A DNA stretch of 64,000 bases from an uncultured candidatus Porisulfidus sp. (lineage in GTDB: Bacteria > Pseudomonadota > Gammaproteobacteria > Poriferisulfidales > Oxydemutatoraceae), in contig OZ244052.1 of NCBI GenBank assembly GCA_965215125.1, positions 512,001-576,000 on the forward strand, written 5' to 3'. Numbering within the stretch: position 1 is the stretch's first letter; each line of letters opens with the position of its first letter. Positions 28,021 through 41,651 of this stretch are shown here, in pieces. Both the position numbers and the translations under genes were made by a program. Under the pieces are notes generated by a model. That model had not been told where the DNA came from, did not search any database, and saw only the letters and a list, made by a program, of their open reading frames with translations.

Positions 28021-28180
28021 CGGGGTGGTTAATTCCCCTCCTGGGGAGGGAAATGTACCGGCACTATATTTGTGCGGATATGAGACGACCACCCTAAGGG
28101 CGGGCATCACTGAATCGCCGATTGACCTATCGGGCAGACATGCGAGTCTGCCCCTACAAGCTCAATCGGTGGCTCTGTTC
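28021..28180. repeat. Composite REP cluster including GTAG-type hairpin (28132-28157)
   Basis: GGGCAGACATGCGAGTCTGCCC-CTACAAG nested in a CGCCGATT...AATCGG module. Confidence 0.75.
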
Positions 28181-35851: not shown

Positions 35852-37024
35852 CTATCGATACTCCGCTAACTTTTGCATCAACTTGCTTAGTGAAATAACC
35901 ACCACATCATCGCCGATTGAAAACTCATCGCCACCCCCATACACGATGTACTTTTTAGTCGCTCCCACATCTTCGCAAGTTCGGCTGTAGTGTTTGCTCG
36001 GCTTCGGGGCAACACCGTACTTAATCTCAACTGCCCAGATTTCCGAAAACGAAAGTTTGATTACCAAATCTATCTCGGCACCCGCCGCAGTATGATAAAA
36101 GTAGGTTTCGGCACGACTCGGTAGCACGGAATGTATGTTCTCAATGACAAACCCTTCCCAACTTTTACCCAATGCCGGATACGATAACAATGCGTCATAA
36201 GTGTCAATGCCTAATAGCCGATGTTGAATACCGCTATCTCGGATATAGTAGCGCGGCGATTTTACCAACCGCTTTTTGATATTGACATACCAAGGTTGCA
36301 GCCGTCTCACTAAAAGTAAATCAACCAAGATATCAATGTAGTGATTGATCGTCACCCGTTGGACTTCCAGATTGCTCGCCAGTTTAGAGACATTCACCAC
36401 TTCACCCTGCAAATGTGCCAGCATAGTCCACAAGCGGCGCAACTTGCCGGCCGGCACCCTAAAACCCATTTGCGGCACATCGCGTTCTAGGTAGGTGCGA
36501 ATCAAATCTTCCAACCAATCCATAGTCAAGTCGTCGTCGGATGCTAAATAACTAATCGGGAAACCGCCTCTAAGCCAAAGCCGTTTAAGGTTATCGCTAT
36601 CTGCTTCGGTTTCCAATACATTAAAACCACCCATTTCAATATAACTAACACGACCAGCCAAACTCTCCGACGATTGACGCAACAAATCCGGCGAAGCGGA
36701 ACCCAATAATAAAAATTGTCCGTGCTTATGTCCCCGTTCCTTGTTCTTATCTATCAGCCCTCGCAACACCACAAACAAATCAGGCGCGCGTTGAATCTCA
36801 TCTAAGATGATTAGCTTGTCGCCGTGATTGCTCAAAAAACTACTCGGATCCCTGAGCTTCAAAACATCTTCCGGTGCCTCTAAATCAAGATAGACTGAAC
36901 TTTGACCCGCCATTACCATCTTGGCAAGCGTGGTTTTACCCACTTGACGGCATCCCAGCAACACCACAGCAGGATTGCGTGAGATAGCTTTTTCCAGCCT
37001 ATTTTTAATGTATCGCTCCAACAT
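35852..37024 (-). CDS. AAA_14 ATPase with DUF4143/PD-(D/E)xK-like C-terminus
   Basis: GCRQVGKT, IILDEIQ, ESLAGR, EIDLV...AVEIK; start 37024 or 37033. Confidence 0.9.
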   Translation of the reverse strand: MLERYIKNRLEKAISRNPAVVLLGCRQVGKTTLAKMVMAGQSSVYLDLEAPEDVLKLRDPSSFLSNHGDKLIILDEIQRAPDLFVVLRGLIDKNKERGHKHGQFLLLGSASPDLLRQSSESLAGRVSYIEMGGFNVLETEADSDNLKRLWLRGGFPISYLASDDDLTMDWLEDLIRTYLERDVPQMGFRVPAGKLRRLWTMLAHLQGEVVNVSKLASNLEVQRVTINHYIDILVDLLLVRRLQPWYVNIKKRLVKSPRYYIRDSGIQHRLLGIDTYDALLSYPALGKSWEGFVIENIHSVLPSRAETYFYHTAAGAEIDLVIKLSFSEIWAVEIKYGVAPKPSKHYSRTCEDVGATKKYIVYGGGDEFSIGDDVVVISLSKLMQKLAEYR

Positions 37025-37065
37025 ACCTTGCATATTGCATTATTTTTATGCAAATTGCAAGGTAT
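37023..37065. promoter_or_regulatory. 43-bp near-perfect palindrome at the ATPase start
   Basis: ATACCTTGCA-TA-TTGCAT-N7-ATGCAA-AT-TGCAAGGTAT. Confidence 0.65.
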
Positions 37066-37080
37066 CATTCCCTTCTGGAT

Positions 37081-37263
37081 GGAGTGGTTGCAACGGGTAC
37101 ATTCCCCTCCTTTGGAGGGGTGGCAGGCTATGTCCGACGGAGTGGTTGCAACGGGTACATTCCCCTCCTTTGGAGGGGTGGCAGGCTATGTCCGACGGAA
37201 TGGTTGCAACGGGTACATTCCCCTCCTTTGGAGGGGTGGCAGGCGCAGCCTGACGGGGTGGTT
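37081..37263 (-). repeat. Three head-to-tail 58-bp REP-A-containing units
   Basis: Units start at 37081, 37139 and 37197; near identical, no unique spacers. Confidence 0.9.
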
Positions 37264-37467
37264 CACAACCGCTTGCGCCATAAATATTCACAAACCACAA
37301 ATCAAATTCCCACAAAATTAGCAAATACAAAACCCACACGACCACAACTTATTGAAAACCGCATACACTTTCATTAAACTATCAAACAAAAACAATAACG
37401 GCACCACCGTATAAAAAATTGCGCCGGAGCTACCACATCAAAATACTTAACTATAAGGTTTATAAAA

Positions 37468-38204
37468 AGAGTAAATTAAGAGATAACGAGAACGCACTTG
37501 CGGACTTTAACCGAGCAATTAAGCTAGGCAAGAAACATCGAGATGCCTACTATATGAGAAGCTTCACCAAGTGTAGATTAGGAAATTTTCAGGGAGCACT
37601 CGTAGACTTAAATAAAGTTCTTAAAAAGGATTCCAAAGATGGTTTTGCCTACAACACACGAGGTTTTTCCAAATTTAAATTAGAAGACTACGAAGGGACA
37701 GCCAAAGACTTCAACAAAGTGGTTGAACTAGACCCGAACTATTCTACTAACTATGATGTAAGAGGTCTTAGTAAAGTTATATTGGGAGACTACGAGTCCG
37801 CAATCGCAGACTTCGACACATTGATTGAGCTAGACCCGGAATATGCTAATGCTTACCACAATAGAGGTGGTATTAAGGAAAAATTAGGAGACTTCAAGGA
37901 GGCGATTAAAGACTTTGACAGAGCGATTGAACTAGATCCAAATTATATTTATGCATACTATAACAGAGGTATTCTTAGAGGAGAGTCGGAAAACCTCAAG
38001 GGAGCGATTGAAGACTTCAGCAGAGTAATCGAGCTAAATCCAGAATATGCCGATGCTTACTATAACAGAGGCATTGTTAATGAAAACTTAAAAAACTACA
38101 CGAATGCCGTTGCCGACTTTGACGAAGCTATTAAGCTAGAACCATCTGATAAGGCTTATAGAGAAGCAAGACAACAGGCGCAACAAAAACTTGATAATTC
38201 CTAA
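37468..38204 (+). pseudogene. 5'-deleted paralog of TPR gene 34522-35436
   Basis: Leader joins directly to sequence equivalent to ~34699, losing the ATG and ~60 codons; rest of frame open. Confidence 0.6.
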
Positions 38205-38337
38205 TCCGTAGGGGGCATATCATTCCCTTCCTTGTAGATAGTATGGATGACCAGCTTTGCTGAAAGTTGGTTAAACTTTCATTTTAGTTCCCTTCTTAAG
38301 AGGGGTTTAATTAACCACTAAACAAAGGAGGTCATCC

Positions 38338-39486
38338 ATGACTAGTATACTGTATGTTGGCATTGATGTTGATGATAAGAGTTTCACTGCCACAGCCATT
38401 TCTAAACACAATAATTATCATTCCATTAAAACGCGTCCGGACTTTGCATCACTGCATAAGGCAATCACCAAAGTCGCTTTGCCGTATGAACAGATTAGGG
38501 TCTGTTATGAAGCAAGCTATTTAGGCTTTTCGTTAAAGCGACAATTTGATGCGCTGGGCATTCACTGCGATGTGATTGCGCCGTCGCTGATCCCGGTGCG
38601 TCCCTCGGATCGTATCAAGACCGATCGCCTAGATAGCGTCAAGCTGGCTGAATACTACCGACAAGGTATGTTGAAAATCGTCCACGATATTGATACTGAG
38701 ACCGAAGGTCACCGACAACTCATTCGTGGACACCAACAAGTGGTCAACACCTGCAAGATCTATAAACTGCAGATTTTGTCGTCGTGCCGTTATCGCGGGA
38801 TTAGTTATCGCACCAGTATGCAGGCCAAGAGCTATTGGACGAAGCAGCACATGGCATTCTTAAAGCGGCTCCTAGTCGACGACAGTTTAGATAAGTATTT
38901 CCGCCTCGATTTAGAGAACAAGTTATATCTATTGGAGACGCAACAAGGGGTTATCAGACGCTATGAGAACGATATACATCAGTTAGCGATATCCGAGCCG
39001 TATCGTCGGGCGGTCGGCTATTTATGTTGTATCAGAGGCATTGCCGAGTTGATTGCGATGACGCTGATTGTTGAGATTGGCGACATCGGTCGGTTTGTCA
39101 AGGCGCGTCATCTGGCCGGTTATGCCGGCTTCAGTATCAGTGAGTATAGTTCCGGTGGCAAGAGTCGCAAAGGGGGTATTACCGGGATGGGCAACAAATA
39201 CATCCGCACGGTGTGCGTGGAAGCCTGCCAGTTGGCGGGTAGACGCTATAGCGTGAATAAGGCATTGCGTGCCCGACGCGCCGACCAAGACCTAGTGGCT
39301 ATAGAGATAGGCGACCGTTGCATGAAGCGTTTGTATAAGAAGTATCAGACGATGTATCATGCCAACAAACCGTTCAACAAGATTAAGGTGGCGTGTGCCA
39401 GAGAGCTACTCGGTTTTGTGTGGGAAGCCTTGCGTGCTGCCCAGGCCGCTGAAAACGCATTGCACGCCGCACCGGTGGTTGAGTAA
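38338..39486 (+). CDS. IS110-family DEDD recombinase/transposase
   Basis: VGIDV, CYEA, KTD.LD (DEDD), SSGG serine loop, G.ITG.GN..IR, ARELLGF.W; AAGGAGG RBS. Confidence 0.95.
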   Translation: MTSILYVGIDVDDKSFTATAISKHNNYHSIKTRPDFASLHKAITKVALPYEQIRVCYEASYLGFSLKRQFDALGIHCDVIAPSLIPVRPSDRIKTDRLDSVKLAEYYRQGMLKIVHDIDTETEGHRQLIRGHQQVVNTCKIYKLQILSSCRYRGISYRTSMQAKSYWTKQHMAFLKRLLVDDSLDKYFRLDLENKLYLLETQQGVIRRYENDIHQLAISEPYRRAVGYLCCIRGIAELIAMTLIVEIGDIGRFVKARHLAGYAGFSISEYSSGGKSRKGGITGMGNKYIRTVCVEACQLAGRRYSVNKALRARRADQDLVAIEIGDRCMKRLYKKYQTMYHANKPFNKIKVACARELLGFVWEALRAAQAAENALHAAPVVE

Positions 39487-39539
39487 GCTCGTTAAGCAAG
39501 AGGCTGCCAGATAGAGTTCTGAGAGACCGAGGGAGTTGA

Positions 39540-39920
39540 AGCTAAAGTCAATGACAAGTTCCGAACTTAGATGCCGTCCTAGAGTATCTGCCCATAGAAA
39601 ACTGCCAGGCGTGATGCGTGGTAGGGCAACTGACCGTAGATTAAGGGGCACAGTTCATCCAATTAACTTATCATGTGGTAATGCGAAAGCAAAGTACACG
39701 AATATGAGGTTGATAATACCGAACGACTCATTAGTTGAGTACTTTAGCGGTGCTTCGCTCTGTCTCTCTTCGGTACAGCATGATGCCGTTAACAAGGAGA
39801 TAAAGCAGGTGCACGAAAGCCGCCACGACAAGTGGCGCATACACATACCTGATGCATGCTTTAAGAGGGGTGGCGCATTGCTATCGCTCGCTCCTTGTTG
39901 GCATCATCTGTGCCGTCATT
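39540..39920 (+). ncRNA. Putative bridge/seek RNA of the IS110 element (boundaries approximate)
   Basis: ATCTGCCC (39586) = reverse complement of right target; CCGTAG (39634) ~ left target+core; ATATGAG (39702) = donor end+core; long stem 39772-39914. Confidence 0.65.
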
Positions 39921-40201
39921 TAACCCTTGAGTTCTGGTGACTTTTGGGAATGTAGACTTCGGTAAAAATTTAACTTGACAAGCTGGTCATCCATATGAGG
40001 GGCAGATTTGCATGTCTGCCCTTAGGGTAGCAGGCGCAACCTGACGGAGTGATCACAGAGAGGGGCTGTTGAAAAAGTATCGTCATTACACAATCCAACC
40101 ACTTTGGACTTATAAGAACAGACCCTACTTGTCCGACCTACATACCCGTATTAAGACTCTGTAAAACGTTACGCAGATTAACCTACTGGCTTAATCGGCG
40201 G

Positions 40202-41170
40202 TCATCTCTTTAGCTTTTTAATTTCAGCGACAGATAAACCTGTGACTTCGGAAATCAACGAAACCTCCAGACCCTTTTGCAACATATTTAAGGCGATTTC
40301 GTGCATGCCTTGAACTCGGCCTTCCTCCATGCCCTGAACTCGGCCTTGCTCCATGCCTTTTGCCAGACCTTCCTTTAACGCACCGCGCCTTTCCAGTTGA
40401 ATCCCTATCTCATACTTCATGCGATCTATAGTCTCCCAGTGTGATTCTTTGTTTTTTGATATCTCCTCTAAATGTTCTAATATCATTTTCGTCTCTCCGT
40501 CTTGTGATAAATACGCTACTTGCTCGGGTGTCAATTCCGCCGAGTGCTTAATAATATAGCACCACCTATCCTTCATATCAACAAGGTCGCGGTAGCTCTT
40601 CTTGAACTTATTCAATTCCACTATGACGATCTTTGCACCGATATCGAAATGGTATTCTATCTCGTTGCGGTCTACAAATCCTATTTCAGTGATAAAGTTG
40701 TGCTTTCCTTTGAATACCGTGAACCGGGTAAATCCCAACGAGTAGGTCGGATTGAGGTTTGCATAGTCATCGCCACGGTTTAGGTCTTGAATAAACAGCA
40801 AAGCCCAATAGGCGAACATTCTAAGTAGGAAGTTTTTTTGGAAGGCGACTTGCATTTCTATATTGACATTTTCTCCGCCACTTAATTTGACGCTGAGGTC
40901 GAGGACGACCTGCTTGCCGTGTGGTTTAGTCGGTGGAATGGAGGTGTCTTTGAACCGTAGTTTATCACTTGATTGCTGCTGCTGTTGTTCGGCTGCTTTT
41001 TTAGAGGTGGCAGAAGTTTTGAGGTTTAGGACATCGACATCCGAGACATTATCGGAGATTGGCAAGAAGCTCTTAATGAGCGACAGCAGTAATCGCTTGT
41101 TGCCGGTAAAGTATCGTTTGAAGGCAATGTCTTTTGTCAGCGGTAAATATTTAGGTTGTTTTTTTGCCAT
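40202..41170 (-). CDS. Rpn-family (PD-(D/E)XK, YhgA-like) nuclease/putative transposase
   Basis: D.AFK.YF, LDL.V......NIEMQ, R..YWA, DRWCY, C-terminal G.E.G repeats and IA.NML..G.....I...TGLS. Confidence 0.9.
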   Translation of the reverse strand: MAKKQPKYLPLTKDIAFKRYFTGNKRLLLSLIKSFLPISDNVSDVDVLNLKTSATSKKAAEQQQQQSSDKLRFKDTSIPPTKPHGKQVVLDLSVKLSGGENVNIEMQVAFQKNFLLRMFAYWALLFIQDLNRGDDYANLNPTYSLGFTRFTVFKGKHNFITEIGFVDRNEIEYHFDIGAKIVIVELNKFKKSYRDLVDMKDRWCYIIKHSAELTPEQVAYLSQDGETKMILEHLEEISKNKESHWETIDRMKYEIGIQLERRGALKEGLAKGMEQGRVQGMEEGRVQGMHEIALNMLQKGLEVSLISEVTGLSVAEIKKLKR

Positions 41171-41389
41171 GAAATCTCCTGTAAATTTTAGTTAAAACCT
41201 ATAATTTGAGAGAATATTCGGGATGTTTTTAGACAAACGGATGAACAGTAGTAAATATCCGATAAATGGTATGAAATGTTGGGAAATAGTCTGTTTGGGC
41301 GGATTATTTCTTTTCTTGGGAAGCAATGATGGTTTGCGTAATCAGTGGCGCAAGGGGTGGTCGTGTCTGTACGAGTACGGTGTCGGTAC

Positions 41390-41514
41390 ATTCCCCTCCT
41401 TCGGAGGGGTGGCAGACGCAGCCTGACTGGGTGGTCGTGGAAAATCTGCACAAGTATAGTGCTAGTACATTCCCCTCCTTCGGAGGGGTGGCAGACGCAG
41501 CCTGACGGGATGGT
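41390..41514 (-). repeat. Two REP-A copies
   Basis: 41390-41436 and 41469-41514. Confidence 0.85.
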
Positions 41515-41651
41515 TCATAACCGTTTTCGCCACAACTTATTGAAAACCACCTATGCTTTCATTAAACTATCAAACAAAAACAACAACGGCATTACCGTAT
41601 GAAAATTGTGTCGGAAATACCGTATCAAGGCACACCAAAAGGAATTTAATT

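Follow-up and report, generated by a model that had tools for sequence, protein, structure and literature searches.

The question raised by this locus is how an insertion sequence (IS) comes to sit precisely in a repetitive extragenic palindrome (REP) of its host. The locus lies in a 64,000-nucleotide stretch (the window, whose positions are used below unless genome positions are named) of an uncultured candidatus Porisulfidus sp. (assembly GCA_965215125.1, contig OZ244052.1, positions 512,001 to 576,000). An earlier note, made from the sequence alone, had described at 38221-40021 an IS1111-type IS110 element inserted into the GTAG of a REP hairpin. Sequence reading and a repeat search bear out this observation at these coordinates, and we conclude with high confidence that the locus holds an intact IS1111-type member of the IS110 family, in which a DEDD recombinase gene is followed on the same strand by a bridge (seek) RNA. 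The protein itself is an IS110-family DEDD transposase. The features that define the insertion are:

38231-38237, plus strand: left half of the target REP, head CTTGTAG, whose last two bases (AG, 38236-37) are the core
38238-39997, plus strand: IS body, 1760 bp (1762 bp with one AG counted), delimited by the limits of homology among five genomic copies
38242-38257, plus strand: left subterminal inverted repeat TATGGATGACCAGCTT, from the repeat search; its core ATGGATGACC is common to relatives
38338-39486, plus strand: transposase (recombinase) gene, 382 aa, intact; the only long frame, with matches to PF01548, PF02371 and NF033542
39980-39995, plus strand: right subterminal inverted repeat AAGCTGGTCATCCATA, from the repeat search
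39998-40021, plus strand: second core AG (39998-99) and REP hairpin GGGCAGATTTGCATGTCTGCCC (40000-40021), by sequence reading
28132-28160, minus strand: unoccupied REP of the same type, used as empty-site reference, by sequence reading

The two subterminal repeats are 100% complementary over 16 nt, as had been claimed, and AG is present at both junctions. With a slash marking the boundary, the junctions are CTTGTAG/ATAGTATGG on the left and CCATATG/AGGGGCAGATTTGCATGTCTGCCC on the right. Removal of the element together with one AG rebuilds CTTGTAGGGGCAGATTTGCATGTCTGCCC, in agreement with the earlier reading; 27 of its 29 positions are identical to the free REP at 28132-28160 (reverse complement CTTGTAGGGGCAGACTCGCATGTCTGCCC), and both mismatches fall in the loop. 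Measured against this free REP, the target duplication consists of the shared AG only, with no further bases. Since AG is the dinucleotide common to element and target, and hence the recombination core, the notations GT/AG and GTAG/ describe the same event. The insertion is therefore at the GTAG as proposed, with one correction: the GTAG is not inside the stem of the hairpin and forms the head that precedes it. The 1762-bp count follows the IS1111 convention, which assigns the AG to the left end.

A DNA search of the 2.22-Mb single-contig genome returned seven pieces, which make up five copies:

c1 (the locus studied): full length, intact gene; left CCTTGTAG, right AGGGGCAGATTTGCATGTCTGCCC
c2: full length, intact gene; left GAGCCGTAG, right AGGGGCAGACCTGTGTGTCTGCCC
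c3: cut at element position 1336, with E replacing the first conserved D (D10E); left CACCGGTAG, right end lost
c4: split at 989-993 by an 1809-bp IS; left AAGCCGTAG, right AGGGGCAGACC...
c5: also split at 989-993 by this 1809-bp IS; left CTACCCTAG, right AGGGCATACGAGTCCGCCC

Each of the five left junctions ends with TAG (GTAG in four, CTAG in one). Three of the four readable right junctions enter AGGGGCAGA...TCTGCCC REP hairpins (GGGCAGA stem) and the fourth enters a degenerate relative, AGGGCATACGAGTCCGCCC; in the remaining copy (c3) the right side is cut off. The junctions thus show neither unrelated targets nor differing ends, and they support the proposal of an intact element that targets the GTAG REPs of this genome.

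The target itself is not a chance motif, as the genome contains 23 occurrences of GTAGGGGCAGA where base composition predicts 0.8. Hairpins of the form TAG-GGGC[AG]GA..TC[CT]GCCC number 39, which fits a multi-copy extragenic palindrome with a GTAG head, and the perfect GTAG-headed hairpins fall into two stem variants, with GGGCAGA in 11 and GGGCGGA in 26. No gene for a Y1 (RAYT-type) transposase was detected, in that the 99%-complete single-contig genome has no match to PF01797; the same search was positive in 6 of 14 control genomes.

The earlier note gave no reason for the choice of the REP; the explanation supported here is guidance by an RNA encoded in the element. The non-coding part of the element is unevenly distributed, with 511 nt downstream of the transposase gene and 100 nt upstream. 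In 2024, IS110 and IS1111 recombinases were reported to use an RNA from the non-coding end of the element that pairs with both target and donor DNA (PMC11208160; PMC11187229, both available in part). For elements of the IS1111 type the RNA is encoded downstream of the gene, with the top-strand match ahead of the bottom-strand match (PMC11187229, in the available part). An RNA with this layout can be placed in the downstream region:

39521-39768, plus strand: outer stem enclosing the guide RNA, 39521-48 with 39741-68 (repeat search, 28 nt, 71%)
39563-39734, plus strand: bridge/seek RNA, target-binding loop followed by donor-binding loop (family structure, weak covariance-model match, fold)
39586-39593, plus strand: right-target guide AUCUGCCC, reverse complement of GGGCAGAT at 40000-40007
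39633-39639, plus strand: left-target guide ACCGUAG, equal to the left flank of the target (REP head) plus the core AG
39667-39672, plus strand: candidate right-donor guide CUUAUC, matched to the core G plus ATAGT of the left end by 4 Watson-Crick pairs and 1 G-U pair of 6
39702-39708, plus strand: left-donor guide AUAUGAG, equal to the last bases of the right end plus the core (CATATG-AG), 7 of 7

Because ACCGUAG reproduces the REP head and the AG core, it can pair with the target's bottom strand; it agrees with the left flanks of c2, c4 and c5 at 6 of 7 positions. Across 38 unique elements with both junctions, the mean exact match of the guides to their own targets was 5.6 on the left and 6.0 on the right, compared with 3.7 and 3.6 for foreign targets. 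A summed match of at least 12 was reached by 22 of the 38 own pairs and by 22 of 1346 foreign pairs. The left-donor guide behaves in the same way: in the family form AUA[U/C]GAG, the T/C position is that of the right end of the same element for 22 of the 23 unique combinations, so that where the right end reads ..ATACGAG, the RNA reads AUACGAG. The right-donor guide is only suggestive.

These positions occupy the loops of a conserved structure. Six helices were set by hand on an alignment of 40 relatives from which this element was left out. Across these relatives 90.5% of the cells are paired, compared with 29-43% when the partners are slid, 13 of the 24 pairs are changed on both sides, and none of 500 shuffles reaches any of five structure measures. 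Loop 1 is closed by CCAC/GUGG and contains the right-target guide, a hairpin and the left-target guide; loop 2 runs from the right-donor 6-mer through a GCGU/ACGC hairpin to AUAUGAG. In the RNA of this element the apical hairpin of loop 1 is enlarged and loop 2 carries an additional GNRA hairpin, two insertions that are absent from the covariance model of the relatives. Its single-sequence fold recovers the outer stems GAACU/AGUUC, UGCC/GGCA and CCU/AGG. The enclosing stem carries one compensatory change, from CTAAAGT/ACTTTAG here to GTAAAGT/ACTTTAC in the sister element L008. When RNAalifold was applied to a plain MAFFT alignment, the output was a single 4-bp helix; the structure came from the better alignment and the hand-set pairs. 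An Rfam search of 37500-40800 gave no match at E ≤ 1.

The closest full relative, referred to here as the sister element, shares 74% protein identity and is present in six copies in one metagenome-assembled genome (MAG; loci L008-L013). It occupies the site ACTTTAG/../AGGGCGGAT..ATCCGCCC. In its RNA the target guides UCCGCCC and GCUUUAG replace AUCUGCCC and ACCGUAG, and the surrounding RNA is alike; its right-donor 6-mer AUUAUC matches GATAAT at 6 of 6 positions, and most other relatives have AUCUUA matched to GAAGAT. These guides and sites make the sister pair a natural case of reprogramming that follows a REP variant. Two further segments, AAGGGGCA (39643-50) and GAUAAUA (39712-18), were considered as extra guides and rejected: they are unchanged with the sister's target and pair as stems with UGCC/CCU and UUAUC.

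Several observations weigh against this reading of the RNA. ACCGUAG matches the left flank of the studied copy at only 4 of 7 positions. Pairing of the right-target guide begins one base beyond the core G, whereas most relatives also pair the core G through a last C; in that usual register the guide would fit AG-GGCAGAT (the TAGGGCAGAT type, five in the genome) and not GGGCAGA. The same one-base shift is seen in one other relative, L043. The right-donor guide is weak family-wide, at about 4.0 own against 3.3 foreign pairs of 6, and the script that scored it mis-anchored both this element and L008, for which the values were read by eye. With the covariance model of the relatives, this RNA is the sole match in the window, and a weak one (13.1 bits, E 0.33) with loop 1 misplaced, and nothing in the whole genome is found at E ≤ 0.001. 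Finally, the guide RNA does not fold significantly better than shuffles, with single-sequence z-scores of -1.0 here and +0.9 in the sister.

Relatives were collected by a scan of one genome per species, which gave 80 loci with proteins at 33-45% identity. By record titles the clade spans Bdellovibrionota, Gammaproteobacteria and other phyla, and the nearest public relatives are in MAGs titled Candidatus Porisulfidus and Candidatus Oxydemutatoraceae. A metagenome search for closer relatives yielded one locus, 42% identical. The relatives share an end plan: on the left the target-AG is followed by 5 nt and by either ATGGATGACC.. or ATAGACGCC.., and on the right the repeat is followed by 3 nt and the AG-target. 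Their non-coding regions of about 250 nt can be aligned to that of this element. One member from another phylum (L068:125-1538, in a Candidatus Muiribacteriota MAG, 40% protein identity) lies at TTTGTAG/../AGGGGCAGA.. (AGGGGCAGAACACTGTTCTGCCC), and its guides UUUGUAG and ACUGCCCC match its own site. This could be either convergence on, or wide spread of, GTAG-GGGCAGA hairpins.

Where the element belongs within the IS110 family was assessed from its protein and its architecture. The transposase scores 31.5 bits against PF01548 (cut-off 29), 58.8 bits against PF02371 (cut-off 21.3) and 176 bits against NF033542, 'IS110 family RNA-guided transposase' (cut-off 140). An alignment of 23 relatives, inspected for the acidic residues and the Ser-Gly of the C-terminal finger, shows no variation at D10, D12, D13, D99 or G273 and next to none at E58 and S272; the assignment of catalytic residues is inferred from the literature. 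The C-terminal motif is GL-I-EYSSGG here and GL-I----SG in the family consensus. As described in the available part of PMC11187229, the IS1111 plan comprises subterminal repeats of usually 11-13 bp, perfect or nearly so, with a left extension of 7 (or 6) bp and a right extension of 3 bp, a long non-coding region 3' of the gene, no target bases duplicated apart from the shared ones, the motif GL-P----S(T)G, and a transposase of 330-350 aa. The repeats measure 16 bp here and 12-17 bp in relatives. With the family-wide repeat core ATGGATG...CATCCAT as reference, this element has AG+ATAGT as its left extension (7 bp) and ATG as its right one (3 bp), and all relatives read have the same two lengths; with the longer perfect repeat of this element as reference, the lengths are 6 and 2. 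The description as an IS1111-type IS110 element thus holds for the IS110 domains and the IS1111 architecture and fails for the length of the transposase, which at 382 aa (367-395 aa in relatives) lies outside the IS1111 range.

This length difference is the starting point of the alternative that survives best, namely that a separate, deep-branching lineage of the IS110 family has an IS1111-like architecture with long subterminal repeats and a 3' guide RNA. Repeat-bearing exceptions are mentioned in a deep IS110 branch (PMC11187229, available part), the best annotated plasmid-borne relatives are only 29-35% identical, and solved IS110-group recombinases match the C-terminal domain only (E 5e-5). 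Against it, the 7- and 3-bp extensions, the guide order with the top-strand match first and the 3' position are those of the IS1111 description in the same source, and the family motif GL-I----SG is close to the IS1111 motif. We regard a separate lineage as quite possible, if not the favored placement, and retain the assignment to IS1111. ISSso6 was considered as a labelled reference; its plasmid copy is nested among other IS pieces and was unusable.

The proposed life cycle involves two further features of the element:

39975-39980, plus strand: -35 hexamer TTGACA, part of a promoter formed only across the circle junction
38243-38339, plus strand: leader hairpin, left repeat 38243-59 with CAAAGGAGGTCATCCAT at 38323-39 (17 nt, 88%; covaries in the family)

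The earlier suggestion that TTGACA would lie 18 bp from GATAGT once the ends are joined holds in silico: the spacing is 18 nt, the two hexamers agree with the consensus at 10 of 12 positions, and a TG stands one base upstream of GATAGT, which is made up of the core G and 38238-42. No comparable promoter is present in the integrated state of this element. By the same criteria just 6 of the 41 unique relatives form a junction promoter, and 1 of 41 scores in the integrated control; this counts against the proposed reading. By analogy with studied relatives, the element would leave as a circle joined at AG, and the joint would build the TTGACA-18 nt-GATAGT promoter, which would transcribe the recombinase gene and then the RNA. 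The complex of recombinase and RNA would hold the circle joint and a REP and exchange strands at AG, so that AG ends up on both sides with no other base duplicated.

The leader hairpin may be a regulatory feature. CAAAGGAGGTCATCCAT spans the Shine-Dalgarno sequence and extends two bases into the start codon. The leader fold with the full left end has a z-score of -4.37, and an RNA that begins at 38249, about the expected start from the junction promoter, leaves the AUG free. Of 38 unique relatives, 23 have at the start codon a stretch of at least 8 nt complementary to the left repeat, compared with 2 of 1900 shuffles; the other 15 include relatives for which the start codon was probably picked wrongly. 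The complement changes together with the repeat (ATGGATGACC/GGTCATCCAT compared with ATAGACGCC/GGCGTCTAT). On the fold and this family covariation, transcripts entering from outside would carry the whole left repeat, which would cover the ribosome-binding site and start codon by pairing and should thus prevent translation, and transcripts from the junction promoter should start within the repeat and escape the block. Such a leader resembles the protection against outside transcription found in other IS families. The pairing is not mentioned in the results of a literature search on IS1111 repeats or in the available part of PMC11187229, which is not proof that it is unpublished.

Whether this life cycle still operates bears on a second alternative, that the copy is structurally intact and immobile, a fossil kept by drift. 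Between the two full-length copies, 56 of the 1760 positions (about 3%) are different, which argues against a recent burst, and three of the five copies are dead (one truncated and carrying D10E, two split by another IS). In contigs from three runs of two studies (X1, X3 and X4) both junctions are occupied, and no joint that skips the element or joins its ends was seen; this is weak evidence, since contigs drop rare forms. On the other side, the 38 differences between c1 and c2 in the 1149-nt gene comprise 20 synonymous and 13 non-synonymous codons, and the guide RNA, with only one difference in about 180 nt, is more conserved than the gene. This pattern argues for selection on both gene and guide RNA. 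The ends, guides and promoter halves are all intact, and 23 unoccupied GTAGGGGCAGA sites are left, five of them with the full CCGTAG head. Loss of mobility is considered unlikely.

A contig from a fourth run (X6) contains a copy that has lost 895 bp internally and retains the two ends and the RNA. The same copy was seen as locus L055, in a MAG of the same genus: the transposase segment that matches 38566-39460 of the window is missing, the ends, the guide RNA and a 3' module described below are retained, and the site reads .../AGGGGCTTATATGTCCGCCC. Such a deleted derivative is possibly a non-autonomous form. The 1809-bp IS in c4 and c5 has a DDE_Tnp_1_4 transposase and lies outside the window, at genome positions 931981-933789 and 1115592-1118538. 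It splits the two copies at the same five bases, TGCCA (duplicated), and its orientation within the host element is reversed between them. All six of its genomic copies lie at TGGCA/TGCCA within ..GGGGTGGCAGGC.. or ..GCCTGCCA.., which indicates a site preference of its own, and the transposase gene of the IS1111-type element happens to hold a preferred site. In c5 the inner IS is itself split (1116904-1118036) by a third element with a helix-turn-helix and rve integrase-type transposase, which gives a three-level nest.

The element is also longer than most of its relatives. It measures 1760 bp here and 1748 bp in the sister, and the other full-length relatives are about 250-300 bp shorter, at 1418-1543 bp. 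The surplus sits between the guide RNA and the -35 hexamer and contains the following feature:

39771-39915, plus strand: genus-specific module of 145 nt, a long imperfect hairpin with two inner hairpins (fold, repeat search)

The module folds at -85.4 kcal/mol, compared with -66.6 +/- 4.5 for shuffles (z -4.22), and none of 200 shuffles is as stable. Relative to the sister, three of its pairs are changed on both sides, several G-C pairs have become G-U, and four to five pairs are broken. Of 53 genomes of the order, four were found to contain it (the genome studied among them), all of this genus and always inside the element. On these grounds the module may be read as an RNA or DNA structure. 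That the module and the outer stem form a functional accessory RNA domain of the lineage, and not an inert passenger palindrome, is a tentative suggestion that we hold to be doubtful. Such a domain might set the 3' end or the stability of the guide RNA, or gate transcription into the right end; if it is real, bridge-RNA elements would be able to acquire add-on regulatory RNA modules.

The extra segment could instead encode a small protein, of 43 aa from a GTG at 39809 behind AAGGAG or of 78 aa from an ATG at 39704. This frame has 141 codons without a stop, the sister's has 109, and 134 codons are reached by 55 of 5000 shuffles (1.1%); within the frame, the only length difference from the sister is 3 nt, and the short frame is intact in the deleted copy L055. 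The frame has, however, no Pfam match at E ≤ 10 and no homologue sharing even three words among 5.8 billion proteins, and no called gene for it is on record. The AAGGAG is one strand of the long stem and pairs with CTCCTT, the N-terminal half varies freely, with four amino-acid changes between c1 and c2, and the frame crosses the guide RNA on the same strand. A coding role is accordingly improbable, and a structured module is the preferred reading of the segment.

The weakest alternative holds that the protein alone recognizes the REP as a folded hairpin and that the non-coding matches are REP debris carried in the element; although the target forms a hairpin, the 3' arm of the REP itself also has the sequence AUCUGCCC, and folded targets were discussed before 2024 for IS1111-type elements at attC sites and REPs (PMC11187229, available part), it can be dismissed as highly improbable because relatives with unrelated, non-palindromic targets carry matches at the same two RNA positions, the sister changed both guides along with its REP, and the matches lie in loops of a covariation-supported structure.

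The surroundings of the locus were also inspected. To the right, a PD-(D/E)XK_2 'transposase' family gene (PF12784; 40202-41170, minus strand) directly adjoins the REP. To the left lie an AAA_14/DUF4143 ATPase gene (35852-37033, minus strand) and a TPR-repeat gene (37419-38204) that reads into the element and has many paralogues in the genus. No orthologous empty site was obtained from a sister genome: the TPR neighbor is multi-paralogue and the REP is absent at the best match. At 36975-37377 and 41188-41602, overlapping frames on both strands contain repeated peptides (..PLLWRGGR.., ..SPPLEGWQA..). These frame clusters are GC-rich palindromic repeat arrays (..GGAGGGGTGGCAGGC..) that flank the locus, and the same motif is targeted by the 1809-bp IS.

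Much of the guide-directed reading has precedents, all of which are described here from the available parts of the sources. REP targeting is already known with an AG core (ISPpu9/ISPpu10, PMC12288879) and with a seekRNA (ISPa11, PMC11187229). ISPa11, an IS1111-family element of Pseudomonas aeruginosa, likewise has subterminal repeats, a fixed place in a host REP and a circle intermediate, and its seekRNA is a 3' non-coding RNA with a top-strand and then a bottom-strand target match (PMC11187229). By description, this element is set apart from it by a longer transposase (382 aa), another REP and a host genus that is, by record titles, sponge-associated and gammaproteobacterial; its non-coding region is twice as long and bears the extra structured module, and it is known from sequence alone. 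ISPpu9 and ISPpu10 of Pseudomonas putida KT2440 are REP-targeting members of the IS110 family whose invariant AG ends form the circle joint, and ISPpu9 has an extra RNA module (ssr9) downstream of its transposase gene (PMC12288879). Unlike the present element, ISPpu9 belongs to the IS110 group and is described as having neither terminal repeats nor a junction promoter; ssr9 has end boxes of its own and moves by itself, whereas the module here is without its own ends and was found inside the element only (PMC12288879 for ISPpu9).

The pair ISEc11/ISXne4 (PMC11187229) resembles this element and L008 in that related members have similar RNA stems and different guides for different targets. The two targets differ from that case in being variants of one REP family in sister genomes (GTAG-GGGCAGA and TTAG-GGCGGAT), so that the guide change tracks the host's own repeats. 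The IS621 bridge RNA (PMC11208160; structures 8wt6 and others) also has two loops, each reading the bottom strand of one flank and the top strand of the other across the core dinucleotide, and IS621 likewise forms a circle and a junction promoter. IS621 differs in belonging to the IS110 group, with the RNA upstream in the left end, the guide order reversed, a CT core in place of AG and no long repeats (PMC11208160), and its protein is alike in the C-terminal domain only (E 5e-5).

The locus provides a clean natural example of bridge/seek-RNA targeting beyond model organisms, with a built-in natural experiment in which the guides of two sister elements differ exactly as the REP variants of their hosts do. 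It defines guide positions and a structure for a widespread, uncharacterized clade with longer recombinases, in all members of which the core is AG. Two regulatory features become testable, the occlusion of the start codon by the left repeat and the add-on structured module. For genome annotation, these elements account for the assembly breaks that they cause at REPs.

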